DNA from: Takakia lepidozioides
Taxonomy: Eukaryota > Plantae > Bryophyta
DNA: 64,000 nt
Direction of reading: 5' to 3'
NCBI GenBank assembly: GCA_030704615.1
Contig: CM060731.1
Coordinates: forward strand, 19,344,001 to 19,408,000
A program made the translations under genes and the position numbers. The notes beneath the pieces were generated by a model. It did not search any database. It was not told where the DNA came from and was given only the letters and a program-made list of their open reading frames with translations. Below are positions 1-38,099 of this stretch, piece by piece. The stretch's first letter is position 1; each line of letters begins with the position of its first letter.

Positions 1-56
1 TGAAGCACAAGTGCCAGATCCGACCTCTAAATTATATTGGATAACAACTATCAGAC

Positions 57-6689: not shown

Positions 6690-6950
6690 CATTGATTTCC
6701 TAAGCTATGATGGTGTTCATGGCCAGCTGGAAGGTTGCTGTAGCATTTTTCAGAGCAAATGGCATCACCAGCCACTCATACAGTCCTGATCTGGTGATCA
6801 CTGCCGTTTTGATCATTCATTCCGATCTGCCAGAAGCCACTCTGTAGATCTAATGCCTAGAACCAGCTAGCCTTTCCTAATTGTTGCAAGACGTCTCGAA
6901 TCATGGGCATAGGATATGAGTCTCTCCTTGTTTGTTGGTTCAGCGATCGG
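6690..6950 (-). mobile_element. Isolated Ty3/Gypsy reverse transcriptase fragment
   Basis: Minus translation [66 protein letters not shown]. Confidence 0.85.
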
Positions 6951-10517: not shown

Positions 10518-11172
10518 AGCCCCACTGGCCCCCTCGTCCCAGGCGTTTCGCCTGCAACTGTGTTTGCTCTCTCACTCACTCTTTTAAAAATCCGCACATC
10601 GCCAGCAGAATTTTTTCCTTACTCGGCTGCAACTTCTTCTATGCTATACATTATTCAACTTCCGCAACATCCAGTCACAATACAATGCAATTCAATCCAT
10701 CTTCGAAATCCCATCGCGATCTGGAGAATGCCAAGCTGCTCCACAAACCCACCACCTGCTAACACGATTGATCTTGGAAAAATCTTGGCAAGAAAAGCGC
10801 ACCACTTCACCCAACCATGTAACTTACACCTACTAACTTACAGCACTCGGACCTTTCGAGCTGGACAAGCGTGTATGGTAAAAAAATGAGCGACCACACG
10901 CAGTGTTACCTCTAGTGTTTCTCAAAGGCACTAGTTGGCCTGATCTCTCCCACGCCATCTCACCACTTGGCACCGATCCCTCCTGCCACGTGGCGATCAA
11001 TCTAAACTACCATATGCCATTGCATGGCCGCGTGGCTCACTTGGCGATCCAATGTATGGATGATGGCATGCCACATTCATCCATAATTACCATTCATTCA
11101 TCCATTCAAAAGTCTCAGCTGTGAGGAGCCTGATTCCTCGCTGCTTTATTCAGCTTGGATGAATGTTCCAGG

Positions 11173-15100: not shown

Positions 15101-18100
15101 CAGTCTACTGGACAGTCTCACGAACTCCTTGTAAAGCCAGGACAAGATCACTTGCACCTCTGGCAAAAGAGTCGAAAGTAGTCTGCACTTGCTTGTCTCC
15201 CACATCAACTCGCCCTGCAACACATATTTATGCAAATGTGAACTTCTAAAAAAGTTGACAAAAGAAATGGAGCTGAAACATGAAAGATGCCCAGAACATT
15301 TTACCTTCCAAGAGATTTCCAATGAGGCCAATGTCCTTGATTTTCCGGCACAGGCATGCTCCATCGAGATGAGCAATGGCGCCGATGCGGTCTTTAGTTG
15401 GGGTCCCACACCACAAGACTTTGAAGACATTGGGATTTTGCAAAACAATGTCAAATACTGCTCGCTCCATCACCAATGCAAACCACTGCAATGCGTCATC
15501 CACCACAAACTTCTATGAATGGTCTGTTCCATGGAGCAAGTCCATCCTCAAATTATGCAGATCCTTCATCAACTTGTTGTACGAGCGGAAATTGCCTAAT
15601 TGCATCCATCTGTGTTGTAGGAAGGAAGTTGTCATGCGCTCAAAGTCCTCCTCAGTCAATCCGAACAAATGCTTTCTTCGCACCCCAAAGGTTGGATGTG
15701 CCATAGGCATATGTCTGAGGTCTTCAGGCCGTGGGTCATCCATGAGAATCAGCTACACAAGTAGAGGCGGCGCATTTTGGACGGTTGTGGCTTCAATGGC
15801 AACAGCAGAGGCGGCTTCCAGAACATGGTTGGCTTCCTCAATAGAAAACTCCATGGAATAATGAAAGGGTACAAATGACCACCGGCGGTCCGCAACAATC
15901 CGGTGGAGCTCATTATGCCAATCCAAATGGGGATTAATTTCTCCCACCCTAAGCCGGGGAAGTGTGAGGTCTTCAGCTCCAAGTCGAATTACCGGTGATG
16001 GCGATCGCCAAACCGCAAAAAACGCCGTGCTATGTGGGAGAAAGGCAGTCTGCTGGTCAGTTTGCTGGCTGTCAGTCTGCTGGTCCGCAGTCTGTTGGAT
16101 GACAGGTCTTCCCATTGGCATGGGCTGCATGATGGGCTCCTGGAGAGGAGTCTGCAGGATGACAGGCTGCTCGTTGGGAGTCTGCTCCGTTGGAGTCTGC
16201 TGGATGACAGGCTGCTGAATGGGAGTCTGCTGGATGACGGCATGCTGTATGGGAGTCTGCTGGATGACGGCCTGCTGAATGGGAGTCTGCTGGATGGCAT
16301 ACTCGGCAGTCCTAGATGCATTCCCCCCCGACGCGTCTTGAATATGTAATGCCGCTATAGCAGCAGTTGACCCAGGATACTTCAATAATATGTACTCCCG
16401 CACGCGGTCCACTTCCGCACGCACCACAGTCGCTTATAAAGGAGCATCATTGCTAGGTATCCGCCAAGCCTGAATGGCCCTACGAATAGAAACACGTTCA
16501 TCCTGGTACACGGTAGAGAACTTGGACGTTAGGAACATGGATGTGGACTCTATATTCACCTCGTGCAACGGACTGGACTCACAGACCAGCAGACTGACAG
16601 ATGTAACGTGCGTACGTAGGGTGGAGCCAACTAGTAGACTGTACCAGCGGACTGGACCAGCGGACTGACAAATGGACTCAGTAAGTAATGCAGCGATATA
16701 AAATAGACTAACTGACGAGCGGAGTGAGCCAGCGGACTGAGGAGAGAACGCAGCGGACTGACCAGACTGAATAGGCAACGTGACCCCCATGATGGACTCA
16801 AACAACACAGAGAACAGACTGGGCGGTCAGACTGACCATTACCTCCTCTACTTCTTCATCGTCATCTTCATCTTCAAAGCTGTTCAACCAGTTCTGTTCC
16901 GCCTGTCGGATGAATGTGCGTAGCAGACCTGACTGGGCAACTTTGTAGAAATAATGGAAGAAGTCTGGATCCCCAATTGGTAGGCACTCTGGTGGGAAAA
17001 GCCCAAAGTCAACGAGGCGCAATGTGTCGGGGCAGACTGGCCCTTCAGTGCTTTATTGAGTTTTTGGTTTTGACCCTAAACCGATGGCATGGGTCGCGAT
17101 ATTTGTGTGAGTCTGCTGCCGAGTCTGGTCAGGCAAGTCAATGTCCACTGGACTTGTCACCCCTTCTAGGCCTTCGAAGTCATCATTCCGGATAATGGTT
17201 TGCCCGCCCTGAGCAGATTCACTTTCAGTATCAGTACTGATGGTGTGGGTCTGCCGCCCAGGACGGGGTTCAGTCTGCTGCGTGGATTTTGCCCTTGCCT
17301 CGCGAGCAGACCTTGCAGCCTTCTCCTTTTTTTGCCTCTCCTTTTTTTGGGCCCCATCACTCAGTTTACGTTTTCTGGCAGCATCCGGCATTCCCTGCAC
17401 TTGCAAATCCTCCATTGACGGACCACCAGAATGGACGCCATACCATGCGCGCACTTCGTCTAATTCCAAAGTGCGGGGGTCAAGCACTGATCCGTGCATG
17501 CGCATTGTGGCCTCTTTGACAATCGACATTTCTTTCAGTATCGGCCAAGGCATGAAATCCCGTGGAATCGTTGCAACAGTCTCTTTGCAACCCGTGTCAA
17601 CACAATGCCGATTTAGTTGGATTTTGTCCTTGATAACCTCTTCACAGAAAGTACAGAAGAGCTTGTCCTCCTGCCAATTCGAGTTTTTGGGCTTCCGGGC
17701 GCGGAGGTCTACAAATGCTTCCACTATTTTATGATCAAACTCCTCTGGTGAGTACCAGTACCTTCGCTCATTCTTCAGTCTGGTTTGGTGCACAAAATCC
17801 ACCCAGTCCGCTCCACCCTTTTCACAAGCATCCTCCATCGCTGCAGAATGAAACGAGGGTGCAAAGACAATGAGCGACAGACATAAGTCCTATGAAAAGA
17901 CTCACCCTAAGCAAGAAGAGGACACAGAATGGAATGGAAACACCGTAGCAAATAAGAAGCTCACCGAGCCGATGAACTTCGAGTTGTTACGAAGGCGAGC
18001 GTGTTTGCGACGCTTTGCGGCTCACCGCGACTCTCCACACCTGGGGAAGAACGGCCCTCTTTTGTTACGGTGATGGAAACGCAAAGAGGAAAACGAAACA

Positions 18101-20112
18101 GTGCGAAGAAATAGGCGCAAAGAGAATGGAGTCGACACAGGGAACATGAGAAGAAAGTAGAAGTAGAAGAGGCCTAGCATGGCACAGCCAACGTGGCGCA
18201 ATTTCACAAGCGCCAACTATCCGTCGTCATTGCATTGAATACGTCCACCGAATGAACGCATCGTACTAAATTCATCCACGGTCCTTGCACGTGCAACAGA
18301 TTCATTTCCCATCGGGCCGAGAGTCCACCAGACCGCCAGTCCAGCGGACTGTTCGCTTTGTTGAGGCGTAGCGGCTTCATATTGGAGGCAATTCCCTGCC
18401 AACGGACACACTGCAAAGAGACTGGCAGCAGAACAGACTGACAAAGTACCAGGCGAACAGACTGATATCCATCAGGGAACGATTGTTGAGCACACCTCCA
18501 GTTCAGCAGACTGGTTTGCAAAGAAGCGGGCGGAATGAAGACAAAAGAGAGTAAGGGGAGAACATGAAAGTCGAACATACCCATTGCGAATAGACTCGCG
18601 GCACAACAGACTCATGCATGCACAGTCCAACAGACTGATATCCATAGAGGAGAACTGTCCAGCAGACGGACGTTTCGCCAGACTGGCGGGAGAACAAGCC
18701 AAAAGACTGACCGGAGGTAAAATAAGAAGTCGAACAGACTTAGTGCAACAGACTTCCGATACAACAGACTGACAAAGTCACAAGTGCGACAGACTGATAT
18801 CCCAACAGACGGACTTCCAGTAGACCGCCTCCAAACTGACTGTTATGCAAGCGATAAGGGGAATATCCGGAGCACTGACGGGCCAGTGGACCCACTGCGA
18901 ACAGACTCGCGACACAACGGACCTCAAACATCCACGCGCATTTGCAGATGCAATTGTCTCAGCCTGGTCCGTCTCCTGGCAAATGCGACAATGTACCAAT
19001 TCTGCACCTACTCCCGCATTCTGTACCTACTCCCGTCGTGGCTCAGACATCTGCATTCAGCAGGTGCGTGTGGATGTTTGAAGACCTTAGGACTGGATGG
19101 TGTTCCGTGACGACTCGTATTGCTTTTTGTGCTGCCATACCTTATATAATACCATGTGGATCCATCACAAAGCTGGGTTTCTTCATATTCTCCACCCTTT
19201 TCCACAACTTATGCATAACGGATGCAAGCCGCTATACTTGGTCACATAAACAGTCCCATCGTCCGATACGAAATCTGCAATACACGCCCCCATGTGCATA
19301 CGCTTCCGCCATTTTCGCGCCCATGTTACCCATGCGTTCCTTTAACAAACTAAACTTGTGAAGGCTCTCATGAGGGATGCAGTACGAAGGGGCTAAATGT
19401 AACATGACGAATCACAAGCAGAGGACGTTATCGAGGACAGATGTCTGCATTTTCCATATTTATGACATAGAACCAAACCATAAAACGAAGGTTCCCGAAA
19501 GCACAACAAGAAGGCAAAAATAGTGGAAGCATATGCACGATGGTGGCTGTAGTGCCGAGACAGTCTTCTCATGTTCAAGCACACGCTTCATCATCATCAT
19601 GAACATCGCGCGCAAAAGATAAACAGTCGCGTGCAACGTCTACCGCAACATCGGACAACAAACAGCCGTCAAAAGAGAGCGGCCGGGATCTGGTGGCAAG
19701 ATCATTGCCGCAACCCTAAAAATGGAGGGCTCGGATGGGTTATGGGAATGGACGATGGAGATCTTGCGCCGTCAGCGGATTGGATGGCAGGGGACTGGCC
19801 AGCAGACTGGCGGACTGGCAGTCTGCTTGGCAGCGGACTAGATGGCAGGGGACTGGCCAGCAGCGGACTGGCGGCAGACCGGCGGACTGGCAGACTGCTG
19901 GGCAGCGGACTGGCCAGCAGCGGTCTGGCAGACTGGAGGGCAGGGGACTCATGGGCGGGGGATTGGCCGCCGCGGCAGACGGGGGCGCGGGCGCGGTTGC
20001 TGTAGCTGCGCCCGCGGTTGGGCAGGGTGGGGGAGCCGGGCGTCCGTGCGCGGGGCCCACCGGCCACCTCGCACGTGCCCATTGAAGACCCTATTATCTT
20101 AAAATGAGAGGC
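12113..20112 (+). mobile_element. Mutator-like element (MULE), non-autonomous internal-deletion derivative, 8.0 kb
   Basis: TIRs begin GCCTCTCATTTTTAAGATAATAGGGTCTTCAATGGGCACGTGCG and extend imperfectly ~400 bp (12113-~12528 / ~19710-20112). 9-bp TSD TTTTCAAGT at 12104-12112 and 20113-20121. Colinear with 32339-44609 but lacks the transposase. Confidence 0.95.
17053..17838 (-). CDS. MULE accessory ORF with putative zinc finger (CxxC-x12-HC) and basic NLS-like region
   Basis: CTFCEEVIKDKIQLNRHC and ARKRKLSDGAQKKERQKKEK. The homologous ORF at 41671-42661 is frameshifted. Confidence 0.5.
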   Translation of the reverse strand: MEDACEKGGADWVDFVHQTRLKNERRYWYSPEEFDHKIVEAFVDLRARKPKNSNWQEDKLFCTFCEEVIKDKIQLNRHCVDTGCKETVATIPRDFMPWPILKEMSIVKEATMRMHGSVLDPRTLELDEVRAWYGVHSGGPSMEDLQVQGMPDAARKRKLSDGAQKKERQKKEKAARSAREARAKSTQQTEPRPGRQTHTISTDTESESAQGGQTIIRNDDFEGLEGVTSPVDIDLPDQTRQQTHTNIATHAIGLGSKPKTQ

Positions 20113-21559: not shown

Positions 21560-21716
21560 TTTTCAATTCACATGAGAAATTAAAATTAAGTAGTAGTTTC
21601 GGGAGTGAGAGTTTTAATTTTTCATTGAGAAATTAAAATTAAGTAGTAGTTTCGGGAGTGTAAGTTTTAATTTCGCATTGAGAAATTAAAATTAAGTAGT
21701 AGTTTCGGGAGTGAGA
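21560..21716. repeat. 53-bp tandem repeat, units 1-3 (unit 4 displaced to 44610-44670 by two TE insertions)
   Basis: TGAGAAATTAAAATTAAGTAGTAGTTTCGGGAGTG at 21573, 21626, 21679 and 44628. Confidence 0.95.
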
Positions 21717-22205
21717 TGTCGTGCGCATACATATCGCTACACAACTCTCCAAGGGTTGGATCAGCAATAGGAAGCAACTTCACAAGCTGACTCTTGTGTT
21801 GCTCCCTTGCTTTCAATCCCACACAACACATGTGCACACCACACACTAGTATACCACTAGTCCACCACTAGTCCAACCACTAGTCCATCCACTAGGCTAC
21901 AACTAGCCAGTCACTAGGCTGCCACTATGCTGCCCACTATGGCAGTCACTAGTCCACACAATCGCCCCCCTAGCTGGTGCTTAGGTCCCTCTAAGTCCAG
22001 GTAGCCACAAGATGTGATAGTGATCATAGCCTCACTAAATCCTCCACCACTATCTCTACTACACTCAAACTCGATAGATCAAGAGGTCGGGTGCAAGAGT
22101 TGCCCCATCGTTAGTCGCCGTCTTGCAACCTGTGAACTTGAGCTTTGGATCTCATGTATTGACTCCTATGAGCTTGGCCTCCCATGTCTTGTTAGCTGCC
22201 TCCAG

Positions 22206-22370
22206 TCATGTCCACTGCCAATATCCCAAGCAGTGTGGATACAACCAATCTCCGTTAGGAACCTTCTCAAGAGGTGGTGTCAAGCATCCCATATGCCAAC
22301 CCCTTGAGCATCGATCACACACCAGCATGGTGGCTGCCCCTTTGGCAGACCCACAGAGCATGCACCTCAA
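22206..22370 (-). CDS. PHD finger at the integrase C-terminus
   Basis: CMLCGSAKGAATMLVCDRCSRGWHMGCLTPPLEKVPNGDWLYPHC: C4HC3 pattern with the penultimate Cys changed to Tyr. Confidence 0.9.
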   Translation of the reverse strand: MRCMLCGSAKGAATMLVCDRCSRGWHMGCLTPPLEKVPNGDWLYPHCLGYWQWT

Positions 22371-23500
22371 ACCTGCAGGTACCACTGCCAAGTTTGGGTC
22401 AACTCTACCATCGACATTGGGAAGGTGACATGGCGCACAATTACGCACATGGTCCCTCCAAGTCATGCCATCCCGACCCTCCAAGATCATGACCCCTGAG
22501 GGCAACACCTCTCGAACCCTCAGAATAACACGCCTGCAGTAACATCCAGAGTGGTAGGAGCAGTCTGCTGCAAATAAACATAGTCACCAGGGCTAAAACT
22601 CTGAACCCCAGGACAATATCCTCCACCACGTATAGTGGCATACCTCAACATATCACAGTGTTGTGCAATGGCAAGGTTCTCAAAAGCCATGGGCATGACT
22701 TTCTTGAACAACTCTGCACGTTGATCACATGCACGTACCCACACGTCCGGATCGTCAAGGTTAAGGACTTGAGCAGTGTCCCTACGAATGGCAGCAGGCA
22801 AATCCGGCTCTCGGCCAAAGAGAAGAAAATATGGTGAGAAGGAGGCAAGTGAAGCTTGTTTGCTGAACCTGTAGCCCATGGCTAACCAATGAACCTGAAG
22901 ATCCCAATCTCCTAGGTGTCCCTTCTGCAAGCCATACTTGCGCAAACCCCTCTTCACCGTCTGAACAACTCTCTCTGCTAAGCCATCGGCCTCAGGATGA
23001 TCCCGAGAAGTGGTGCGGTGGTCTATCAAGGCTTTATCACACAAAGCCTGAAACTCCCCCAAGAACTCTCTCCCTTGGTCCGTGAGTACCTTAGCTGGAG
23101 CACCAAATCGGCTAAGCACACGATCCAAGAATGCATACGCAGCCCCCTCACTAGCCTTGTCAGGCAATGGAACCAACTCAATCCACTTGGAGAAGTGCTC
23201 CACCATCACCAACACATATCTGTGGTGGCGCATAGTCAGTGGCAACGGTCCTGCGAAGTCAAAGACTCCACCTGTAGCCCAATCCCATGATTGGTAAAGG
23301 ATGCAACTGTGGTGTAGGGGTGTTGAATGAAGCACGCACCCTGTCACACACCATGCACCTAGCCATGAACTGTTGCACCTCTGTATGCATACCACACCAC
23401 CAATACTGCCCTTGCAGTAAACTGTGAGTGCGTCGCACTCCAAAATGCCCCAACTCCTCATGGGCATGCCGCACTAACCGTGCACGATGTGTGGGTGAGG
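22370..23500 (-). pseudogene. Retroelement integrase (HHCC + DDE core)
   Basis: HEELGHFG...YWW..M...V...CMVC; DFAGPLP; VLTDQGREF; HPEADGLAERVVQTVK; SPYFLLFGR. Confidence 0.95.
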
Positions 23501-23867
23501 CACAATCCTCACCCGACCATCCTCCCACACTCAAAGTAGGTGTATCCCCTCCCACTTGAACCTCTTGGCTCGTTGCAGGATCCGATCCCTCTCCCTGGCA
23601 GTCACAGTGGCTGTGTGTCTCCAGTGCGGAGGTAGTCCAACACAGCCGAATCCTCATGTATATCTTTGGCACCACCTGGCTCATCACTAGCCTCAAGGTC
23701 CTTAGACACTCCGTCTACAGTCATCCCTGTTGTAGGTCCAACCTGACCTCCCGATGCCAAGATACACAAAAATGCAGATGCGTGTCATCCCGGCACCATC
23801 TCCTTGTCCGTCTCACCATGCCACCGAGCTCCAGTGTCATCCTGCTGGCTCATGCATGGATTGCGAC

Positions 23868-25200
23868 TCAATCCATCCGCATCCCGATTGACCAAACCGG
23901 TCGATGCACAACCTGAAAGTCATACTCCTGGAGTATGAGTGCCCACCGTGCAAGCTTCCCCGTAAGCTTGTCTGACTCCATCAACCACTTGAGTGGCTGG
24001 TGATCCGTGACAAGGGTGAAAAGATTGCCGTATAGATAGTACTTGAAGTGTGTCACGGCCCACACTGCAGCTAAGCACTCTCCCTCATATGAGCTGTACT
24101 TAGCCTCTGCAGTGTTGTTCGAGCGGCTAGCATAAGCCACTACGAACTCTCTTCCCTCATCATCCACCTGTGTGAGCACCGCTCCAAGCCCCCCAGCATG
24201 CTCCAATCCGTATGCAGCTGAAAGGGACGCCCACTGATAGGTCGTCTTAGGATAGGCGCCGAGGTCAACCTCGCCTTTGCTCTTGAAAAGCTCGTTCCTG
24301 CTCATCTTCCCACTGCCACTCCTGGTCCACCTTGGTCAGCTTGGTTAGAGCCTTTGCAATGGTACTAAATCCCTTGACAAACCGTCTATAATAGTTTGCC
24401 AACCCCATGAAAGCTCGAAACGGCTCACATCCGTGGGGTGGAATTTGTGCAATGGCTCTCTACCTTAGTCTGCTGTACCCCCAATCCTCCAGGATATATC
24501 ATGTGACCCAGATACTCAATCTGGTTGTGGAAAAACTTGCACTTACCCCGGATGCAACTTCAATCCGTGCGCTCTCAAGCGCTCCAATACCACCTGAAGG
24601 TGTCTCTCATGCTCCTCCATCGTAACACTAAAGATGATGATGTCATCTATGTAGCACCGAGCAAAGTCCACCCCTGCTAGAATCCTATCCATGACTCTCT
24701 GAAACCTGCAGGAGCATTCTTAAGCCCAAATGGTAAGAACCGCCACTGATATAGGCAATCCTTGCCGTGCTCATTGATCCCCCAGAATGTCGTCTTCTGC
24801 TTGTCCGCCTCCTTGATTGGCAACTGGTGATATCTGGATCGTAAATCCAAAGTGCTAAAGACCTTAGCATGCCCGATGGCATCAAAGATCTCCTCTGGTG
24901 TTGGCATGGCATACTTATCGGACTTGGTCTGACGATTTACAGGCCGGTAATCACCGCACATACGTCTCTCCGTCCAATTGCCATAGACATCCTTCTGGCT
25001 GGCATCACTGTGGCTGAAGCATACTCTCCACGAGAGAGCTCCACCAAACCTGCCTCCCAGAGATCTTGAGTCCTCATCTGAATCAAAGACCTCTCCATGT
25101 CACTGTATCTATAGGGTCTCCGAAAGATTGGCGTGTCAGTGGCCAACTCAATACGGATCTCTTGACCCTTCAGTGCTCCCAAGTCTTTCAAACTGAAGGC
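23868..25200 (-). pseudogene. Retroelement reverse transcriptase and RNase H
   Basis: MCGDYRPVN..T.SDKYAMP, FSTLDLRSRYHQ, LPFGLKNAPA, RCYIDDIIIF (~24635-24660). RNase H motifs GLGAVLTQ, YASRS, YSSYEGECLA, VTDHQPL. Confidence 0.95.
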
Positions 25201-25644
25201 AAAGCAATTCCTGTAAGCCCTCAGGAACCGCCGTATACGTCGTCTCTCTCCTCCGGTGACAATGGGTCCAATGTCAGGCTCCCAATTGTCCTCTGTAACT
25301 GCAACCTTAAGTCCAGTGGGCTTAGAGGTAGAGACGCGTCCGTGGTTGCTATGTGCAACCTCTTGAGCAGTACTCCCTGCCTGCTCAGTCAATAACAAGA
25401 CCTCATCCTGCCCCATCATCTCATCATTGAGGACCTCCTCAACCGAGAAGAATCCCCAACCTCATCTATTACAGCCGCCTTGGCTGCCAACTCCCTCTGA
25501 ACCTCGAGCACCTCCCACGTGTGCCATGGATGACTATGCCCTGTGGTCCTCACCGGCTCGCCCCCACTCACTGCCTGTACCGTCTCGGTAGGCAGAGAGA
25601 CCATCGAGGGAAGTGTACTCCGCACTCTGCGTTGCTCAGCCAGA

Positions 25645-26600
25645 GCCAAGCTGATAATCCAGGTCAAGCAATTGAGATCCATTGCTTGCCCCAACACTTG
25701 ACGAGGTGATGCCTCAGAAAGAGACGACACCGCTGTGGTACCAGTGGTAAAACCCATTGCCCGCTCACGCTTGTCGGCTCCACTAACTGCTGCAACTGAG
25801 CATCCCACAGGAGGCCAGGTCCACTATCCCGGAAAGCATGCGATCCTGGGAAGCTGAGCAGTGTAGGTAATGCTGCTCGTGGTTGACCCACCTTGTTGAC
25901 CACTGCCAAAGGCGAATGGTCATCGTGTCTCACACGCTGAGACTGCCTCCTGTGTCCAGAATGCTATCCACTGTAAGATGTGCTGGCCGCTGCACCCCAT
26001 CAAATGCACGCTTGAGCAGTGCGGGTGGCATCAAGTTAGTCCACCATAGCCGTGGACGATGAGCCCGTGACCCCACTGTAGCTGCATCTAGCAACACTGC
26101 TGACCCAAGCTATGACCGGACTTGATGCACACTGGCCATTACCTTGGCCCGAGAATCGCCCATCAGTGGCACATTCTCCAAGATGTATGCTGGAGATACA
26201 GCTTGATGAAGCTGCAAGTGGCGCAAAACCCGCACCATCTCCCAAAACAGACCCGACCTCGAGTCTCGCAATCCATTGCCATGCCCGGCTGATGAATGCC
26301 CTTGGCAGGGCCAACCTGCCACTACCAGATCAATGGAGCCAACCCGCTCCAAATCTGCGCCCCCCAGCAACGAAATGTCTGCTGGCAAGGCTTGCTGATA
26401 TCCACGAATTGCAGACACCGACAACAACTCAGGGTACTGCTGCACCAATTGAGCAACATGGCGAAGTGAAACGCGTCGTGCAGTCTCATCCCTCTCCACA
26501 TACAGGTAACGCCGAACTCGTACACCTGCCTGTAACACAGCAGCCAATCCGGTGCTGATCCCGCCAAACAAGTCCAGAAGACAAATGCCTTCATCCGGAT
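25645..26600 (-). pseudogene. C5 cytosine DNA methyltransferase domain, DNMT3-like, inside pol between protease and RT
   Basis: Motif I LLDLFGGISTG; II YVERD; IV DLVVAGWPCQGHS; VI YILENV; VIII LLDAATVGSRAHRPRLWWTNL (read through the TAG at 26110-26112); IX ERAMGFTTGTT; X RQVLGQAMD. Confidence 0.92.
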
Positions 26601-26899
26601 ACTGCCACACAATAGGTGTGGTGTCCAATGGAGACAACTGAGGTGGTCCTGGTGCAATCCCCGCACTCTCCTCCTCTCTGACGGTACAAAAGCCTCCACC
26701 CAGGCTTGTTGCACCCGTCGATCAGCATCCCGCTGCAAATCCTTGCTCGTGCCCCACAATGGAGTCTGAGCAACCATGGTAGGCAACTCCGCCATACCAT
26801 ACATGTCATCCTGCTCTCCCGGAGGTGGCACATCCTCTGAATGAGCGTTGCCCTCAAGCAACTCTCTAGGCCAACTCACTGCCGCTGTGAATGCTGCTA

Positions 26900-27458
26900 G
26901 TGTCGGCATCTTGCCTCGCTGGGCAACCGCAACTCCTCCTATGAATGTCACAGGGAGCTGCACACGCCGGCCCTCCCCTGACTGCCATGCAGGCCTATAG
27001 GAAGCTGACTCCTCCCAAAAATCCAGGGTGAAGCCCATGGGGTACAACACTGCCCCACCAACCAGGACATCGTATGAGACCGCGTCTGTCACAATGGCCT
27101 TGGCTCGCATCACTGAGCCATCTGTAGGGTGATCCGGCCGTAGTCTGATAGCCAACTCACGCCGTGTCATGCCCCGAGCCTGCTCCGATCCTCCCAGAGA
27201 CGTCTGTATCTGGAAAGGACAAGGCTCCATATCCGCCTCCGTGAGGCCCAAGCCTGCAATAGCAGCTCTGCCCAGCATCAATGGCTGAGCTCCCGAGTCC
27301 AACAAGACCCGCAGTGGCCGGTACCTCTTGCCTGCCGATCCACTCAAACAGAAAATGTCATCCTGGTTGTCTAACATGACAACTCCAGGTGTCACCATGG
27401 CGCGCTCAATGGCTGGCCTAGCTGGCAGCTCCATCAACTGGCAGCTGCAGCTTGCCAT
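26900..27458 (-). CDS. Retroelement aspartic protease domain
   Basis: RVLLDSGAQ (D-S-G catalytic motif ~27300) and YDVLVGG (ILG-equivalent). Confidence 0.85.
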
Positions 27459-27694
27459 GGCGCCGCCGTGGCAGTCTTGACCCTCAAATCCGAGGATCCC
27501 TCCGGCACTACACCTCCCACTATCTCCGCAGAAGATGAAGTAACCTCCCCACTCTCACAGAGTGTAGCTGCCAGCCTGAACACCTCAGCTGGTCTTACCC
27601 CGGCGTCGCAATCATGGTAGCCGAGAACAATGGAGCCTGGCACACAGATGTGGCCGCTCCTAGCAGCACACTAGCTGCCGTAGCCTTGGCAACA

Positions 27695-29520
27695 CTAGGT
27701 AGTGGTGCTACCCGTGTAGCTCTCCCCAATGGCATAGTAACCTCCGCCTCGGTAACAGTCGGGGCGAGAACTAGGTGCCATGGATGGCGTCGACACTGTC
27801 TCCGCCAATGTGAATGACTGAGGAAGCCTAGCCTGACGGCTTGCCTCCCCACGCTGTGGATCCAACTCCACCTCTGCACCTCGTGGCTCAGGAACTCGTG
27901 CTGCTCCTCGAGTCATGGCTGCAGCAGACTCCACCTGCACTAGTGGTAGTGCTGCTCCACACATAAATCCCATGCCTCCCATATCTCCTCCCTCAGGAGC
28001 AGGAGGTGGACCATCCGGCCTTAGAGCCGGTACCACCTGAGCTGTAGCCATGGCAGCAAGCCTCTGCTCTAGCTGCTGAAGCCAGTTGGCCATGCCTTGG
28101 TCAACACCCTGACCTCCGCGTCCTTGGCCATGTTGAGCTTGCCCTTGGCCTGCACCTTGTGGCTGGCCACCTCGTCCTCTCTGGGCTGCTTCACCTTGCC
28201 CCCGGCCACCATTGTTCCCTTGGAACTGGCCTGGGCGCAACTCAGGATGCAAACCATAACACTGGGCCTCTCCATGCCCGTGCTTGCCACAATGCCCACA
28301 CTGCAATTGTGCAGGTTGTGCATGTGCCGGCCCTTTGCCTCCCTCTGGGCAATCCTTCTTGACATGGGGTCCTCCACATGTCTAGCACACCACATCCGCT
28401 CGTTGTTGGCCAGCAAATGAAGGGAGAGACCCCTGCATCTGAGGTCCTCTCTGCCCTTCCCTGAGCTTCACCTTAGCCCCCTTGTTGCCTTGAGCACGTT
28501 GAGGTAGTGGTTGGCTAGGAGCACCACTACCCCGTGGTGTCTCATCAGCAAATCCCACCATGACCACTCGTTCCTCCACCATGTTGAGCTCTATCCGCTC
28601 TGCCAGCAAAAACACATTTGCTAAGGTGGATTGGGCCGCTTGTAGGAGAGTTGCATCCCGCACCCTTCTCCTCAGCTCCTTGTCCAATATCCCATACCAG
28701 AATTGGACTGCCTAAGCTTCTGTAACCCCTTGGGTTACATTTATCAAGCGCCTCATGCGAGTGAAAACCTCCCTCAAGCTCTCGGTCGGCTTCCGTTGGA
28801 ACTCTTGCAAGCTCCGCAACTTCTCTGTCCTCACCCCTTGGTAGTTCCCTCTCAACTCTTCGAAGAACTCCACAACAGGGTTGAAGGCAGGCACGGCTGC
28901 TAGTGCTGGTGCAGTAGTGGCTTGGGTGGACGTCGTAGCTACTGTACCACCAGTCCCACTAGTCCCACTGCTACTTGCTGAAGCTGCCGGTGCAGCGGCA
29001 GGTGTAGCCATTGCCCTCGTGGCTCTAGTGCCCCTAGTGATGGAGACATAGTCGGGTGACCAGTACATCCTCCACTCCTCAATCTCAACCTCATGCCCCC
29101 GCCTGAACTCATGGTAATCATCCATAGGCGGCCCCTCAAGGTGTTGAAATAGCCCTTTCCATGCCATGAACGGCGTAAATAGTTGTGGATTGCGCATTTG
29201 CTGCAAATCACACCAACTATCAAACTCTTGGATAAAATCATCCAACTCGATGGTGCCCACCGCCCCCAGAGTACCTTCGTGGCCCCTTGGTAGCTCCATA
29301 CATCTCCTCCATTGTGTCCCACAACAATGGCAAAGAAACAACTTGCACCGCCGGTATGAGTTCTCCTGATTCACAATCCGAATCAGAACCTTCCGTAGAA
29401 GACACGGGAGGTGAAGGTGGCCTAAACTGCACACCTCGTCTTGTGTACCTACTAGTATTGCTAGTGCTCGAACCGCACTGTCCCCAACAACTAGTGGCAC
29501 CTCCGTGTTGACACTCAACC
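27695..29520 (-). pseudogene. Gag-like region with two CCHC zinc knuckles
   Basis: FQRKPTESLREVFTRM (major-homology-like region), C*TCGGPHVKKDC (~28350-28390) and CGHCGKHGHGEAQC (~28260-28300). Confidence 0.85.
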
Positions 29521-29789
29521 GGTCATGAACATGTCCCTAACCCCCTCTCCACAAGGTAACCGGGTAGAGAACCTGTTGCGGCTTATGGTTTGGAATACTA
29601 AGTTCCTAACATAGCCTATACCTGTACCTGCATCCACCGCAAGCACTCTTGCATGACCATGGGAATATCATGAAGATACTCCTCAAACCGCCCTCCACGA
29701 GCTTCAAAATTCGGCCTTCAAGACCACATGCCAGTCCTTAGGCAGTCCACCAGTGCCTCCACGAGTCGGCACAGGCCGTCCACAGGTCA

Positions 29790-30475
29790 ACACGGGCCAC
29801 CATAGACCAGCACAGCCCACACAGCTCACTGGTCACAGCCGTCACAGTCCCACAGGCCACTGGGCACAGCCTGTCACACCCCGCCACAGCCTGTCACAGC
29901 CCATCACAGCCTCACATGCCACAGGGCATAGCTGCCACAGCCTGTCATAGCCCCGCTCAGCCCGTCACAGCTCGCCACAACCTGTCATAGCCCGTCACAG
30001 CCCCACAGGCCACTGGGCACAGCCTGTCACAGCCCCTCACAGCCTGTCACAACCCTTACAGCCCCTCACAGCCCCTCACAGCCCCGAAGGCCACCGGCGC
30101 AGCCCAGCACAGCCCCTCACAGCCCTGAAGGCCACCGGCGTTAGCCCGGCACAGCCCCTCACAGCCCCAAAGGCCTCAGGCACGGCCTGACACAGCCCCT
30201 CACAGCCCCAAAGGCCTCAGGCACGACCTGTCATAGCCCCTCACAGCCCATCACAGCCCCAAAGGCCTCAGGCACGGCCTGTCACAGCCCCTCACAGCCC
30301 ATCACAGCCCCAAAGGCCACGGGCACAGTCTGTCACAGCCCTCACAGCCCGTCACAGCCCCAAAGGCCTCAGGCACGGCCTGTCACAGCCCCTCACAGCC
30401 CCTCACAGCCCCAAAGGCCACGGGCACAGCCTGTCACAGCCCCCAAGGCCACAGGGACAGCCCGTCACAGCCCCA
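29790..30475. repeat. C/A-rich tandem array of CACAGCCC-based units in the retroelement 5' leader
   Basis: Dozens of (T/G)CACAGCC(C/T) motifs in higher-order units such as CACAGCCCCAAAGGCCTCAGGCACGGCCTGT. Confidence 0.9.
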
Positions 30476-32930
30476 TCCATGGCCGCTCTGGCAGTTTAGC
30501 CATTTCTCCAAGGGGTTTAGCCACGCCAAGCTAGGGTTTGTGTCTCTTGGACTCTAGGCTTCTTTCCACCGAGCTATGGCGGCTGTGAGGAAATCAACAA
30601 GGTATTCTTGCTCTTTCGGCTCCCACACACCACCATAGTAGCCCTAAGCCATGAGGTGGTTGCCACAAACCAAGCCTTCTTTCTCACTTAGCCTCCCCAA
30701 ACACGCCACTAAACTCAATGGCAAACAACCAAGCCCTGCTGGTTCCCAGCCCTTGTGAGCACTCATTCAAGCACTCTCCTTGGCCATAGCATCTGTCTTA
30801 GAGCCTATTCCAGCCCCCTACACCTGCTGCTTCAAGAGTTGCGCTCCCGTCAAGCTTGAAGTTGGAACCCCAACTCACATAGGCCCTACAAAGTGCTTTT
30901 CTTTCACTCCAAGTGGAAACCAGCCCTAGAGCTTCCATTTTAGCTCTCTAAAGCTTGAAAACAAGAGCCTCAATGGGCTAAAGGCATGCTCCACACATGC
31001 CCCACTCTCACCATAAGAGAATCAGCTCATTTGCTTCATTTCTTGCACCCACAAACCTGAAAATACAAGCTTCAGCAGGCTGAAAGCATGCTCCACATGC
31101 CCTACAGGGAAACCAGCCCTTCCTTCCTTTCTTGCACTCCCACACCTGAAAGTGCAAGCCTTCACCAGGCTGATAGCATGCTCCACACATGCATTGCCCT
31201 CACATAAGGGAAGTCAGCCCTTCCCTCTTCCTTGCTTGCCCTCCAAGCTTGAAGATGGAAGCTTCAATGAGCTGAATACATGCTCCACACATGCAACCTC
31301 TTCACACATGAGATATCAGCCCCCTATCTTGGCTCCTTGGCTCCTTGGCTCCTTGATGCTCTCTAAGACAAGACTAAGCACTCCACAGCCTTTGCCAAGC
31401 TCCTGAAACCCTAAGGCTTACATTTCCAGCCACAAGACACTTCTCTTGTGGTACAAGAGCTCTTCTTCCAAGCTCTGAAACCCTAGGTGCACATTCCATG
31501 GCCTTGCCGCACCTCTTAGCTCCTGTTCTAGCCCTGCTCTTGCCATGACAAGAGCCTTCTCAATGCTGAAGCTCGAGATTGAAACCCAATCTCACCATAC
31601 TCCACAAAGTGCACTGATTTGCCCCAAGCCAAATCAGCCCTTTCGCTTGGTCTTGCAATCCTTCACACAATGAAAGCTCGCATTCCCAAGTCCAATTCTC
31701 AGCTTTGCCACCAAAGCCACTATAACCTGCTCTTGACTGGTCCTCTTCCCAATCGTGCTTGCTCATGCATGTACACAATCTGAAACCATCAAAGTGCTCT
31801 GGAATTACCTGCAGCATGGTGCTTTCATCTCTGAAGCTGAAGATCGAATGCCAAGGTCTAGCACCTCGTAACCCACATCGCCTCTGCTTCTAACAACCAA
31901 GAGCTCCACGGTGCTCCTTGCATAACAACTTGGTTTCTCTCATTCTCAAGCAAAAACCACAAGTGCTACAACTAACTCGTATCTGGCACTCACAGATACG
32001 AGCTCATCTTTCTCGAGTGATAAAGAGAAGAATACAAGCACAAGCTCATGCGAGCTCACAAAGCTGAAGCATAAACTCATGCATATATAACCTCATCACT
32101 CAAATACAAGTCAAGCCAAGTGCACCCCACGCCATGGGGAATCCACACTACGGTGCCATAGCTAGGCGCGGTGAGGCTCAACTCGAGAAAGATGAGCCTC
32201 CCGCGCTTGCCGTGAAGATAACCACTCCAGGGCCTAAATCTGCCTTACTTGGGCCAATCCCAAATATCAATATGTAAAAACTAGCTATTTCCTAGCTAGT
32301 TTCACACTAGTGGTAAAATAACTTGACAGAGAGTTTCAGCCTCTCATTTAAAGATAATAGGGTCTTCAATGGGCACGTGCGATGTGGCCGATGGGCCCCG
32401 CGCACGGACGCCCGGCTCCCTAGCACCCCGCCCGCCCCGCCCGCTGCTGCGCGCAATCGCCCAGTCGCGGGCGCGGCTGCAGCAACCGCGCCCGCGCCCC
32501 CGTCTGCCGCGCGGCCAGTCCCCCGCCCACGAGTCCGCTGCCCTCCAGTCTGCCAGTCCGCTGCTGGCCAGTCGGCTGCCCAGTAGTATGCCAGTCTGCC
32601 AGTCTGCCCGCCAGTCCGCTGGCCAGTCCCCTGCCATCCAGTCCGCTGATGACGCAGGATCGCCACCGTCCATTCCCATAACCCATCCGAGCCCTCCATT
32701 TTTAGGGCTGCAATTCAAACCTGCATCCCTGCCGCCTGCCACTTGCCACTTGCCAGCAGCCGCGAACGTGCGCACCGTTCTCCTGGCACGTTGTCGATCG
32801 TGTCTTGTACTGCGGCGCGTTTCTTGCATGTTCAGAAGCGTGTCCTTTGTACTGTATAGGGCATGGACATGGAAGCAAAACCCGATGATATACTGATCAC
32901 GGAAAGTCCGCTTATATAGCCTCTTCGACA

Positions 32931-35900
32931 ATGTTTGCAAACAGCAAAACCAAGTCCTTTCAACAGGAATGATCTCCTTTGGAAGAGTGAGACGCAATAT
33001 GGGTTTATGGGTGTGCGAGTGAATGTTGAAAAGGCCTGCATACCTTGGGATAGAGTTGGTGACTTCGTCCTGGGAGAGGAGAGTTTGGAGGACTACCCCA
33101 CTCAGTTTTGGGTGAATGTCCATTCTAAAGTGGAACCCGGCTTGCGAAAAGCACCCAGAGCCAACACATTTCTGTCCAGTATTATGTGTGCACCATCCTC
33201 AGTCCTTTTGACGTTTCATTGCATGTCTATTGCCATTTTTTGTTTCACGAGTTCTCTGATTTTATGCTTCCTCAAGTCGTTGGATATCGATTTTAGAATT
33301 TTCTGTCCATGTATCAATGCTGCTACGGTCCTGATGACAAGCGCACCAACAAGGCAATAGTGGAGGATCCAAAACAGAAGCGTGGAGGACCTCTTGTGGG
33401 TGCTGGAACATCTTGCCCTCATAAAGGCCCAAGGAGAAAGAAGTCGGAGTATGGAGAGTCTTACAAACGTGGTTGCCAATGCTGTTTCAAGGTCCAGCAA
33501 TGCTATCTCGCCCCTGACATCTGTGTCCTCACGTACTACAACAAGATGGAGCATACAGATGCACAAGGGAAACCCTCGCATGGGAAGTCCGCAGAGTTCA
33601 GGAACACCCGCCACGCCTATGCACCATACATTAGCGAGGAGTTGAAAGCCTGGGTCGTCGAGTGTTTGTGCCGAGGCCTATCGGTCGCCCAAATCATGAT
33701 GGAGCATAAAGAGCACGTGATGAACAACACCGGCTTGGGCGATGCATGGACCCGCGATGATTTCTTGTTGGAGCAAGATGTTCGAAACCTTGCCGAGAAA
33801 CGTGCGTGACAAACCTTCAAAAAGCTCGCCAATGATGCAGAAAGTGTGCGCATGTGGAGAGACCAGAATCCTGCATCCATTTTTTTCTATCAAGAGGAGA
33901 AATTAGAGTCAACATTCGAGCATTTTGATGGAGATTTGACATTCACTATTGGCATACAGACTCCGTGGCAGAAACGACGAATGCTGGAACTAGGACATGA
34001 CCATATCGTTGCATGTGATGCAACCTTTGGGACAAATCATGACAAGATACTATTCGAATGATTCCATGGACTTGTACGAGCATGATAGCATAGTACCATG
34101 CAACATTCACATAATATTTGGTGTGCTGACCCTTTCTGTATGTTTAGGGTTGTGTACGTTGCGGAAGACCGAGAGGCAGACCCATTGTGAACCGCTACAG
34201 ACCTCATCACTCTTATGAAGTCTTCTCGTGCAGAACTGAGCGGAATTTGCATGCTCTGACCATCTTACATTGTGCATTCCAACAGTTCCCATTGTACACG
34301 TTGATGGTCTTCGACGAGTGGTTGAACGGTATACCAATTGCCTATATCCTATCCGCAAGGAATCGGACAAGAGACCTGGTTCCGTGGATGAGAGCCTTGC
34401 GCGATTCACTCCTCGCAGATTTGCCGAGCTGGCGACCCAATGCCTTCATTGTGGACGATGCCGAAGCATAAATCAACGTTATTCGGTAAGTCTGTTGGTC
34501 CACAGCACCGGTCCATTGTCGAGGTCCACTGCAGCAGTCCATTGCTACAGTCCACCGGCAGACTCCTATGGCAAAACCCGATGGCAATTCGCTGGGCAAA
34601 TCCACTGGTAGTCCGCTGTCAAGTCCGGTCATCAGTCCCCTGGCAAGTCCGCTGGCAGTCCCACTCGGCAGTCCCTGGCAAGTCCGCTCGGCAGTCCGCT
34701 GTGGCAGTCCAATGGGGCAGTCCGCTGATGCAGTCCGCTGCCCCAGTCCTAGCTAGGGGAAGTCCACTGGGTAGTCCAATGGGGTTATTCCAGCACATCA
34801 ACGTCATGGCATTGTACTGTCCACTGGGCGAATCCAGTGGCTCTGCCCGCTTGATACAGGTCGCTGTTACAGTCCACTCCGGTAGTCCACCATTGCAGTC
34901 CGATCCCAAGACTCTAATGTGTACCATGTGTGTTGTGTAGAATTGTTTTTGAAGGAGTACTCATTTTCCTTGCCTTTGGCATGTCCGCAAGGCATGGGTG
35001 AAGCAATCATGCAAGAAAACGAAGGATCCGGTGACCGTTGTAAACTTGTTGAAGGATATGGGAGACCTCATGTACTGTAGAGGGGGACCACGCAACGAGA
35101 AAAGAGCGCTTCGGTGGGTTGCAAGGAGAATCCGTCGTATGAGGTCAAAATACCCAAAATGACATGAATTTCTTGACTATATCGAACAGTACTGGAAGCC
35201 CAAAATAGCAATGTGGTGTACAGCAGCCCGCCATGTCCTCATGCGAGCCAAGACACAAACGCAAGCATTGAGGCATACCATGGAAATCTGAAGGCAAGAC
35301 TTGTCATGGGGAAAGGCAAGATGAGTGGTCGTAGAGTGGACTGGCTTATATGGGAACTCACTGGCCGTGTGCTAACACACTACTGGTACGCAATCCATTT
35401 GAAGACCCACGGGTTCATAAGAAATGACAAACACGAAAAGTACATATCCAGTTCTATACTTGCGGCACGAGACATTCCTGCTGAGAGTGTTACTCTTCCC
35501 TTGGGTCCTGGTGAACCAGCCTACGTTCTCAGCAGCAACCACCCCGGCACAACATACATTGTTTACAATCCTGATTGCGATTGGGGTTGTTGCACGTGCC
35601 CATGGGCAATGAAGGGAAACTTATGCAAGCATCAGGTCCGTGTCCTGAAGATGCTTCACCCTGACCTGCAGGATGGCCTCCTTGTGCGCGCTTGTGGCAC
35701 AGCGCTGGGAACCATTCATGGAGGATTACCTAACTTGCTCTTGGGCAATGGTGCCGGCGGCAACGACGAATCCAATCAGTTCATGGAAAGACATCCTCCG
35801 GACGACTTCCCCTACGACGAGGCACCTCTGGAGGTCTCAGCCTCATTGGAACAAGAATTCGCGGACATACTTTGCATTGTAGGTGATGACAAATACCTGG

Positions 35901-36343
35901 AGGCACATGCCCGATCTGCTCTTCATATGTGCAGAGGGCAGCTCGTTGATATCCTGGCGAAAAGTGCGGCTGGAATGTTGCACCCTGCGGCAGCGAAGGC
36001 TTTCCGTCCTCTGAACGACAACAACAACATGTCTCTGAAAAGGAGACGAGATTTCGTGGAGGCCTGGAAAACCCGGCCTAGGGTTTTGCGGAGAACCAGC
36101 AAGAGGGTGTCTGCACCTGCACTGCAGCACATATATACTCGAAAATTGCAAGGTTTCAGGTCGTGTAGATGTCACGAAGAAGACAATATAAGTCTGCAAT
36201 GCCTCGAAAAGAGACAAGGTTTCACGTCGTGTAGGTGTCACGGAGAAGACAATATAAGTCTGCAATTCCTCGAAAAGAGACAAGGTTTCATGTCGTGTAG
36301 GTGTCACGAAGAAGACAATATAAGTCTGCAATTCTTCTGGTAG
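32931..36343 (+). pseudogene. MULE-type DDE transposase with SWIM zinc finger, ~4 exons, nonsense mutations
   Basis: RGCQCCF...H (WRKY/GCM1-like), ACDATFGTN, FPLYTLMVFD, AFIVDDAEA, LWHVRKAW, TNASIEAYH, SWIM CTCPWAMKGNLCKH. Introns at ~33186-33296, ~34048-34285 and 34486-34940. Stops at 33807, 34469 and ~35160. Confidence 0.9.
36149..36340. repeat. Three 66-bp tandem repeats at the transposase 3' end
   Basis: AGGTTTCA.GTCGTGTAG.TGTCACG.AGAAGACAATATAAGTCTGCAAT at 36151, 36217 and 36283. Confidence 0.9.
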
Positions 36344-36868
36344 CATTGTCCCTTTCTGAAATACAAGTCCGCAATGGACTAATGCAGTCTCCCAACGGAC
36401 TCCTCCAGTCTCCCAACTGACTCCCACACAGTCTCCCAAGCATAGTCTCCCAACGGACTCACGCACAGTCTCCCAACGGAGTCACAGTCAACAGACTGCG
36501 AGCGCCAGTAAGCCAGTCTGCTGGTCAGTCTGCTACCCACTCCAAAAGTCTGCTCACCACACTTCCACCTCATCCCTGCAACTTATGCCAATCCAGCGTC
36601 CCAGCGGACTCATGGACATGGTGCCTCCCAGACTAGGTACCAGACCCAGCAGTCCTAGCCTCGGCAGCGTACTGCTCGCACATTCAAGCTCAGCAGACTC
36701 GGGTGCACAGTGCATGGAAAAATTGACACCATTGAGTTTAGTGACAACATTACAAAACATGCCAGCACCCACAGTACACAAAAGTGCTCATCACCACTGG
36801 AATAGTAAGCGAAAAGACTCGCATTTTTTATTTCGGTACATAGACTTCACATGACAAGTACATCATAC

Positions 36869-37927
36869 TCATGAGAGCAGTTTCTCTACATTGTCCAACC
36901 CCCGCACGATATACTGGGCACACTGCATTCGCTGCCCAAGTGCAAACTTGAAAGTAAACCAGTCCTTCGTGAAAGGTGTTCCTCTCTCTGGCTTTGCAGT
37001 CTTGGAGACATTTGCTCTGACTTTTACCCACTCATAAAACACTTGAATGAATGACATGACATAAAAGCCACACTCCCAGCTGAATGGTTGCTGGGGCACA
37101 TCAGGCGCGTGAAACTGAAATGCTTGGACAATCTCATGCCACTCTGGTGAGTCCATCGAGTACCCTAAGCACTGCGCATGAAGCTTCCGAATCCACCTTA
37201 GAACAAAGGGACATTTATATAAGTCCCTGATAGAGTTCAGGTGTGTGTAACAGCCCTTGCGGAGGTCGATGATACAAACACTCCAGTGCCCCCTGCAATG
37301 GTATCAAACAACATGGCGTCATTGCACAATCATGATGGGCAGACTCAGCAGACTGACACTCAGCAGACCGACCACTCAGCAGACTCAGCACTCAGCAGAC
37401 TCAATCTTCAAACCCAGTCCACTGCACAAATACAGAGGTCAACTTAATCGCTTAGAGTCAAGAGGACACTGCGAAACCAGACTATGACTCAGGAGACAGT
37501 CTCAACAGACTCAGAAGAGTTCTTACTCGTCCCCAATTGGCACCAAAATGAAATCGCACTCTTTCAAGTCCTTGCCCAGTCGTTCAGTGCTGAGGCAACC
37601 TTTCAAGACCTCCAGAAGGCTTTCATGTTGCCCCACCCCCAATGACTTCAACACCGTCCACGTCGACGTTGGAAGAACATCAATAGTGTTGGTGAACGCA
37701 GCCTCAACCGACTTCTCATAGAATCGACACCACAGCTCCATGAGTCTATCTGTGCACTCCGACTCAACCTTCTGGACCACCTTTATGTCATCCGGCGACA
37801 GTCCGCATTCAAACTGTGGGTCCCCTTCAAAAAACATCAGCATGGAATTACCCTGTGCAGAGCATGTGCTTTGCCAAAACCGAGCACCCATCCTGCACAG
37901 AGCAGACCATCCTTCGGGAAGCCTCAT
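36869..37927 (-). CDS. Ulp1/SENP-like (peptidase C48) protease exons of the MULE accessory gene
   Basis: CDFILVPI | GHWSVCIIDLRKGCYTHLNS (~37230-37290) ... DVPQQPFSWECGFYVMSF: the His, Asp(Asn here), Gln and Cys signature of C48. Confidence 0.85.
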
Positions 37928-38099
37928 GTACTGAACAGACTGACGTCAACATGGTACCAAACACTCTACAGGCTGAACAATTCATCAACTGACAAGACTA
38001 ACCACAACAGACAATGATGAAACCAGCAGCAGACTGACCAGCGTGCAGACTGACCACAACAGAGCGCAAAGCACTTAACGACAAAGACAGACGAGGAGA

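Follow-up and report, generated by a model that had tools for sequence, protein, structure and literature searches.

The window, by which we mean the whole 64,000-nucleotide stretch of Takakia lepidozioides DNA analyzed here, contains a Ty3/Gypsy retrotransposon of the KnitGypsy-Dnmt3 lineage, which is abundant in bryophytes (mosses and liverworts) and carries a DNMT3-like C5 cytosine methyltransferase (DNMT) domain between its protease (PR) and reverse transcriptase (RT). The element in the window is a dead copy in which all ORFs are broken.

The copy spans 21718..32328 on the minus strand (10,611 bp, form A-coding-B), starts with TGTCA, ends with GACA and is flanked by an exactly matching 4-bp target site duplication (TSD), TCTC on the minus strand, at 32329..32332 (5' copy) and 21714..21717 (3' copy). 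The 3' boundary is supported by contigs of other copies, which diverge from the window at 21717, where depth also drops. On the minus strand the domains run gag, protease, DNMT, RT, RNase H, integrase, PHD finger, and the gag-PR-RT-RNaseH-INT order, Ty3-type RT, TG...CA ends, 4-bp TSD and polypurine tract (PPT) are those of Ty3/Gypsy elements. A repeat-pair search found no ordinary LTR pair flanking the coding region in the 64-kb window. DIRS elements have a tyrosine recombinase and lack both a DDE integrase and a TSD; membership of that tyrosine-recombinase class was considered and rejected, since an rve integrase and a 4-bp TSD are present here.

The coding region (all coordinates on the minus strand) is preceded by a long leader at 29313..32001 with tandem repeats (29811-30475; periods of 10, 41 and 51 nt). 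Gag (27700..29312) comprises a capsid-like region and two CCHC-type knuckles, is interrupted by stops and frameshifts, and matches P0005/P0227 at 46-49%. The Gag model of the unbroken relative L046 aligned with Copia, PNMA2, PEG10 and MLV capsids at Z 9-10.5 (VIA-align), a range that helical folds can reach by chance, yet the top 31 rows were all capsid-type; Foldseek with the same model returned nothing at E<=0.001. The aspartic protease (26990..27400; LLDSGA, DSG at 27302-27291) matches PF13650 weakly (E 0.016), and that of L046 has a Pfam match at E 2e-4. Downstream lie the RT (24450..25210, with several frameshifts; YIDD at 24653-24642), RNase H (23870..24230; PF17917, E 4e-32) and the integrase (22530..23500), with an H2C2 zinc finger and rve core; the best PDB match of the L046 RT-IN ORF is Ty3-G Gag-Pol (E 1.7e-98). 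The integrase ends in a PHD finger (22230..22370; PF00628, E 2e-9), in the position that a chromodomain takes in chromoviruses. Its L046 counterpart best matches CHD4, PHF12, PHF21A and KAT6A, and the element PHD, which probably lacks the H3K4me3 cage tryptophan, would presumably read unmethylated H3K4.

Two Mutator-like elements with TIRs and SWIM and Ulp1 domains, sharing a 5.8-kb block at 88%, occupy 12113-20112 and 32339-44612, and the retrotransposon lies about 10 bp from one Mutator-like TIR. A 53-nt tandem repeat (2.7 copies) and an AT-rich palindrome at 21573-21716 abut its 3' flank. Host genes in the window are a GH81 glucanase (45-2500, plus strand), KIN17 (5239-6247, minus; identity of 95% to Sphagnum, 94% to Ceratodon and 92% to Marchantia and Diphasiastrum) and an AP2/ERF factor (58104-58931, minus). 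The KIN17 identities favor a moss as host without being decisive. A short RT-like remnant (6703-6949, minus) adjoins KIN17, and a 399-codon ORF (9375-10571, minus) has no Pfam match.

The DNMT domain (25640..26600) holds motifs I to X in unpermuted order: motif I LDLFGGISTG (LFGG at 26571-26560), motif IV GWPCQ with its catalytic cysteine intact (26313-26302), motif VI ENV (26178-26170), motif VIII RAHRPRLWW (26067-26050), motif IX ERAMG (25766-25752) and motif X VLGQAMD (25697-25677). An earlier note on this DNA had described such an unpermuted series on the minus strand between PR and RT, broken by one TAG and about two internal frameshifts, and had called it DNMT3-like. Every motif could be located, and the breaks proved to be one TAG (26112-26110) and frameshifts at ~25950 and ~25775, with an extra frameshift just 5' of the domain (~26680) and others in the DNMT-RT linker. 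The profile check that the note suggested was equally favorable: when the TAG is read as X, the N-terminal 263 aa match PF00145 at E 1.7e-13 and 51.2 bits, against a cut-off of 22, and this match together with the motif series indicates that the resemblance is not due to chance. Ranked against PDB sequences, the window DNMT lies closest to DNMT3A (E 2.6e-9), followed by DNMT3B/C, DRM2 (E ~1e-4) and M.HhaI. The predicted structure of the unbroken L046 DNMT (pLDDT 96.5, from a 45-row alignment) matches DNMT3A-DNA with TM 0.72/0.82 and E 2.8e-19, and the fold matches listed are all to DNMT3A/B/C. Judged by sequence and by predicted fold, the domain is DNMT3-like, with DRM and bacterial enzymes more distant from it than DNMT3.

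That the domain belongs to a land-plant retrotransposon family, as the earlier note had proposed, is borne out by sister contigs, which cover the element evenly, and by homologs, which share its position. In run X1, 92,879 contigs fell on the element; every bin between gag and the PPT had a summed contig depth (not a copy number) of 0.68-1.29 million, and depth dropped at the 3' end. At the TAG within the DNMT, sister contigs depart from the window in 747,693 of 747,884 of the depth in X1 and in all of the depth in X5, X6 and X7, and they show length differences at the window's frameshift sites. An exhaustive homology search gave 650 representatives at E<=1e-10; the 58 longer homologs include, among the matches listed, 20 from Marchantia, 2 from Calypogeia, 2 from Sphagnum and 1 from Klebsormidium, with Closterium homologs also among the matches listed. 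Among the named matches listed, a minority of all, from searches limited to ~8000 candidates, none came from ferns, lycophytes, hornworts or seed plants, which is no proof of absence. IMG/VR yielded only 6 matches, to distant phage-type methyltransferases, and the ESM Atlas only generic PF00145 clusters. A metagenome scan produced 423 relatives, of which 80 were retained; as these loci were retrieved via their DNMT, the sample is blind to DNMT-less sisters. Marchantia, Calypogeia and Sphagnum homologs reach up to 76% identity to the window DNMT. A comparison of the window with P0003, P0005 and P0014 gives a moss/liverwort identity of 67-76% with short branches, which may reflect strong constraint or horizontal transfer among bryophytes.

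In the DNMT tree of a 42-row subset, all 26 of the 26 pre-RT DNMTs fall on one side of a branch with SH-aLRT 99, a side that holds the window, Klebsormidium and Closterium; the window DNMT belongs to a set of 7 rows that also holds Marchantia, Calypogeia and a Sphagnum-like family, and in a 151-row FastTree it groups with the K. nitens retro-DNMT. Distances in DNMT and RT are correlated across 64 elements (Mantel r 0.66, a value inflated by related rows). The catalytic cysteine is retained in 77 of the 81 loci and the glutamate of ENV in 75/81; the motif VIII arginines are retained in only 56/81 and 64/81, losses that we attribute to decay at CpG codons. Among the well-kept relatives L046, L048 and L050, dN/dS is 0.09-0.12 for the DNMT, 0.02-0.04 for RT and 0.07-0.13 for the protease; for the DNMT of decayed copies it is 0.17-0.44, and dS between the window and its relatives is at or near saturation. 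A dN/dS of about 0.1 among well-kept relatives indicates that the DNMT is under purifying selection. Both the selection check across copies and the phylogenetic tie to the Klebsormidium element, which the earlier note had named, thus came out in its favor.

On the reading frame our results depart from that note, which had placed the DNMT inside pol and expected a continuous PR-DNMT-RT ORF: in the window's clade the DNMT closes the Gag-PR ORF before TAG-CARYY(A). L046 displays this arrangement most clearly, with an unbroken 1369-aa ORF, TAG CAG TTA, and a 1047-aa RT-RH-INT-PHD ORF, all in one frame. The corresponding TAG with CAA CCA, a CARYYA readthrough signal, lies at 25343..25351 (minus strand) in the window, at the boundary of Gag-PR-DNMT and RT, out of register in this decayed copy. 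A stop occupies the boundary in 37 of the 39 Sphagnum-like loci that cover the column, the next commonest stop column having 11/28; once near-duplicates are removed, the boundary is TAG or TAA in 28/30 copies and TAC in 2. The stop is followed by CAA CCC A in the Sphagnum-like family, CAG TTA in L046 and L048, CAA TCA in L050 and CAA CCA in the window, and it is the sole stop triplet with CARYYA among 225 (window), 252 (L046), 94 (L048) and 237 (L050). At the protein level, 27/36 PR-DNMT proteins end 71-164 aa past motif X without RT, an overestimate because the motif-X pattern missed continuous proteins such as P0070 and P0111; Gag-PR-DNMT is also the make-up of five Marchantia proteins of 1278-1281 aa, of which the four listed end 98 residues past motif X. 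CARYYA is important for readthrough in the account of VdLTRE5 (PMC3441728), and this context makes it likely that the TAG is read through at a low rate. As the stop parts Gag-PR-DNMT from RT-RNaseH-integrase-PHD, the DNMT would be produced in amounts comparable to Gag. This dosage is not required across the lineage, since no near-fixed stop after the DNMT was found in a second family (L054-L080, 21 loci), and P0044, P0070 and P0111 are continuous from DNMT into RT. The second family (e.g., L069:5634-14948) comes from the same metagenome contig sets, is 40-43% identical, and combines split repeats with self-priming and a 4-bp TSD.

The ends of the element are organized as split repeats. Terminal repeat A (32018..32328, minus strand, 311 bp), which we infer to be the promoter and R-U5 half of a split LTR, has a homologous layout in L039, L069, L059 and L071, and is followed directly by a primer binding site (PBS; 32002..32018, minus) that lacks a tRNA-type TGG start and complements the element's own 5' end. 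A predicted self-primer of 17 nt within A (32181..32197, minus) is a perfect complement of the PBS and was matched by 0/500 shuffles. Self-complementarity of 11-17 nt between the PBS and a stretch in A was present in 5/5 correctly bounded elements (L011 being excluded from this count), with 0-1/500 in shuffles. Four relatives have a TATA-like motif ~30 nt 5' of the self-primer stretch; upstream of this stretch in the window there is no clear one. At the other end, a polypurine tract (21962..21971, minus) precedes terminal repeat B (21718..21961, minus), which is single in the window copy and in full-form relatives appears as B1, followed by A2 and B2. Neither the split-repeat ends, the self-priming site nor the PHD finger had figured in the earlier note.

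The layout in these relatives is A1-coding-PPT-B1-A2-B2. Seven of 24 loci stop before the PPT; among the 17 others, 8 have the B1-A2 junction GACA-NN-TGTC (or TATC), B occurs once in 6, the window among them, and 3 are ambiguous. One X5 contig passes from the end of B into the start of A, and hence the full form exists in the window's family too. An exact 4-bp TSD flanks 5/7 elements with both ends, with an imperfect one in L071 and none in L059. The sequence of the integrated ends recurs in the internal GACA-NN-TGTC junction, suggesting that the element integrates through a site within the LTR. A2|B2 links the primer-site end to the post-PPT start, like a two-LTR circle junction; in L011:13409-13435 it retains 9 nt of the primer-site side, like imperfect two-LTR circle junctions.

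It is plausible that replication runs as follows. Reverse transcription would be self-primed, in the manner of Tf1, and would give cDNA with B-NN-A LTRs, in which integrase may cut the internal GACA-NN-TGTC site. If both strands were cut 3' of CA in a staggered fashion, two processed ends with 2-nt overhangs would result, and the internal cut would yield either A-coding-B-A-B copies, via an end-joined circle, or A-coding-B copies like that in the window. The A-coding-B form is explained equally well by recombination between B1 and B2 after insertion. Furthermore, equal cutting of a circle at either internal site should also yield A-B-A-coding-B, and the absence of this mirror form from 15 distinct 5' ends (0/15) is a point against the route.

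For the enzyme itself we favor, with moderate confidence, a model in which the DNMT is packaged with Gag at capsid-level copy number, freed by the protease and methylates new cDNA in the particle. In this model readthrough would set the Gag:RT/IN ratio, as in in-frame-stop retroelements, the protease would release the DNMT inside the particle, and pre-methylation of the cDNA would let the new copy arrive already in the host TE methylation state. A role in guiding integration is probable for the PHD finger. The most inclusive version, a green-lineage-wide Ty3/Gypsy clade in which amber readthrough loads an active DNMT3-like enzyme at capsid stoichiometry, the cDNA is pre-methylated and a circular intermediate is cut at an att site in a permuted LTR (GACA-NN-TGTC), is possible and we put it forward tentatively. 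If true, that route would stand between the replication of LTR elements and that of DIRS elements, and would occur in the model plant Marchantia.

A different role, which we think unlikely, would be played on chromatin after insertion: the DNMT would methylate genomic copies of the element itself, the site of insertion or further TEs, and transposition would thereby be damped or the local chromatin state set. This option was listed by de Mendoza et al. (PMC5890265), the host PpDNMT3b methylates heterochromatic TEs de novo (PMC6453930), and an abundant ORF1 product need not remain in particles. However, the element DNMT is without the DUF3444 of host plant DNMT3 (no Pfam match to it in the window pieces or L046 ORF1) and the PHD finger sits on the integrase beyond the stop, which leaves the DNMT with no chromatin reader of its own, and the Gag-PR fusion points to the particle. 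The C-to-T spectrum of the copies (CG 0.13-0.15, CHG 0.16-0.19, CHH 0.05) is that expected from host CG/CHG methylation and bears no imprint of the element's own enzyme; in CpG/CHG depletion and in the mutation spectrum, host and element methylation are not separable.

Rather less probable again is a conserved domain that does not methylate DNA and whose role in packaging or reverse transcription is instead nucleic-acid binding or RNA methylation. Gag-level dosage would suit such a stoichiometric role, and the KnitGypsy-Dnmt3 domain gave no de novo methylation in yeast, a result that its authors do not regard as decisive; human DNMT3B failed the same test (PMC5890265). The retention of the SAM-binding phenylalanine, the catalytic cysteine, ENV and the motif VIII arginines in the window and most loci, and a predicted fold comprising the full DNMT3 catalytic domain, argue against this reading.

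An objection to the readthrough step only, which we judge improbable, is that translation truly ends at the TAG and that RT-IN comes from a spliced RNA, from one started internally or from reinitiation. An ATG lies three codons past the stop in the Sphagnum-like family, and the linker is left out of gene models P0011 and P0032; yet the window, L046, L048 and L050 are without that ATG and, despite far-diverged or saturated synonymous sites, have preserved both the shared frame and a perfect CARYYA. Finally, a single event in which a host DNMT3 fragment was captured, a nested insertion or a chimeric assembly, to which the breaks on both sides of the DNMT in the window copy might point, has a negligible chance of being correct and is refuted by the shared DNMT position in moss, liverwort and algal homologs and the even sister-contig cover, with the lack of introns and of DUF3444 and the congruence with the RT tree also against it.

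Retroelement DNMTs have been known from algae, and the lineage now reaches land plants. The unbroken Gag-PR-DNMT genes of Marchantia, such as BBN08134.1, annotated as hypothetical proteins, make the role of these DNMTs testable in a genetic model with mapped host methylation pathways. The packaging model, in which the stop position predicts many DNMT molecules but few RT/IN per particle, and the split-repeat anatomy, which predicts an unusual integration substrate, would be natural subjects of such work. There are also practical consequences, in that PF00145 gene models of the family inflate bryophyte DNMT counts and LTR finders that require two LTRs will miss it.

The earlier note's view that the family is undescribed in embryophytes held up in the literature searched, which contained no land-plant report of Gypsy-DNMT3 and no account of Gypsy-DNMT3 readthrough or an internal att site. 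The name "streptophyte Gypsy-DNMT3" is used in a 2026 preprint (bioRxiv 10.64898/2026.05.21.726589), whose main text, as far as available, contains neither "land plant" nor "bryophyte" and whose DNMT tree may include land-plant sequences. The available text of bryophyte chromatin papers or reviews and of the PpDNMT3 paper (PMC6453930) makes no mention of Gypsy-DNMT3.

Other retroelement-borne C5 methyltransferases are those of SymbioDIRS-Dnmt3 and the EpiLTRs (PMC5890265; 10.64898/2026.05.21.726589). SymbioDIRS-Dnmt3 methylates CG de novo in yeast (PMC5890265), but these elements differ in belonging to the tyrosine recombinase class or a DNMT4-related clade, and are described as independent captures. 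Host plant DNMT3 (PpDNMT3a/b; Yaari et al. 2019, PMC6453930) shares the DNMT3-type unpermuted catalytic domain and has a C-terminal DUF3444, whereas the element DNMT lies in a retroelement ORF. A large sister group (P0076, P0242, the Scenedesmus sp. PABB004 'pol', P0034, P0036, P0040, P0068 and others) carries a DNMT between RNase H and integrase. This RT-RH-DNMT-INT-PHD order occurs in 28/208 proteins, whose DNMTs separate from the pre-RT group; it implies that the DNMT moved within pol or was captured a second time, and this chlorophyte-type layout was not met in the literature searched.

Individual features of the window family have parallels elsewhere. Tf1/sushi elements and plant Tcn1 chromoviruses, the latter in mosses (PMC6317226), resemble it in features, with a self-priming PBS, Ty3-type RT/IN and a chromatin reader at the integrase C-terminus, but the window family has a PHD finger, not a chromodomain, split and not ordinary LTRs, and a DNMT cargo. 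In-frame stops are a known means of keeping Gag above Pol: Tj1, Tosmo and Tcry1 of fission yeasts have one before RT/IN, Tj1 and Tosmo being self-primed too (bioRxiv 10.1101/2022.12.06.519325), and in Tca2 (PMC2194720) and VdLTRE5 (PMC3441728) a stop parts an abundant upstream product from RT/IN. In those elements the stop lies between Gag and protease, whereas in the window family protease and DNMT are both upstream of the TAG-CARYYA signal. The unusual point is this position of the stop.

The closest known system is KnitGypsy-Dnmt3 of Klebsormidium nitens, which combines Gypsy domains, a DNMT3 and DIRS-like repeats (de Mendoza et al. 2018, PMC5890265), and whose DNMT capture its authors assigned to the K. 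nitens lineage. Shared with it are a DNMT3-like domain, intronless, unpermuted and under purifying selection (Ka/Ks < 0.2), inside a Gypsy element, and DIRS-like split repeats, the latter seen in relatives (8/17 loci), the window copy having A and B only. In P0044 (KFL_009030040) from K. nitens the domains likewise run PR-DNMT-RT-RH-INT; identity across the matched stretch is 49%, and its DNMT belongs to the group that holds the window DNMT. From species and domain order we infer that this protein is a KnitGypsy-Dnmt3 copy. In contrast, the window family is a very abundant land-plant one in which the DNMT ends the Gag-PR ORF before TAG-CARYYA; KnitGypsy-Dnmt3 has its DNMT in the Pol ORF (PMC5890265), and P0044 continues into RT. 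The single ORF of DNMT with RT/RNase H is thus absent from the window's clade, where a single polyprotein would arise only through readthrough. A PHD finger, self-priming, a 4-bp TSD and an internal junction go unmentioned for KnitGypsy-Dnmt3 in the available text of PMC5890265. What the present family adds to this known lineage is its range in land plants, a stop that follows the DNMT, and the internal junction.
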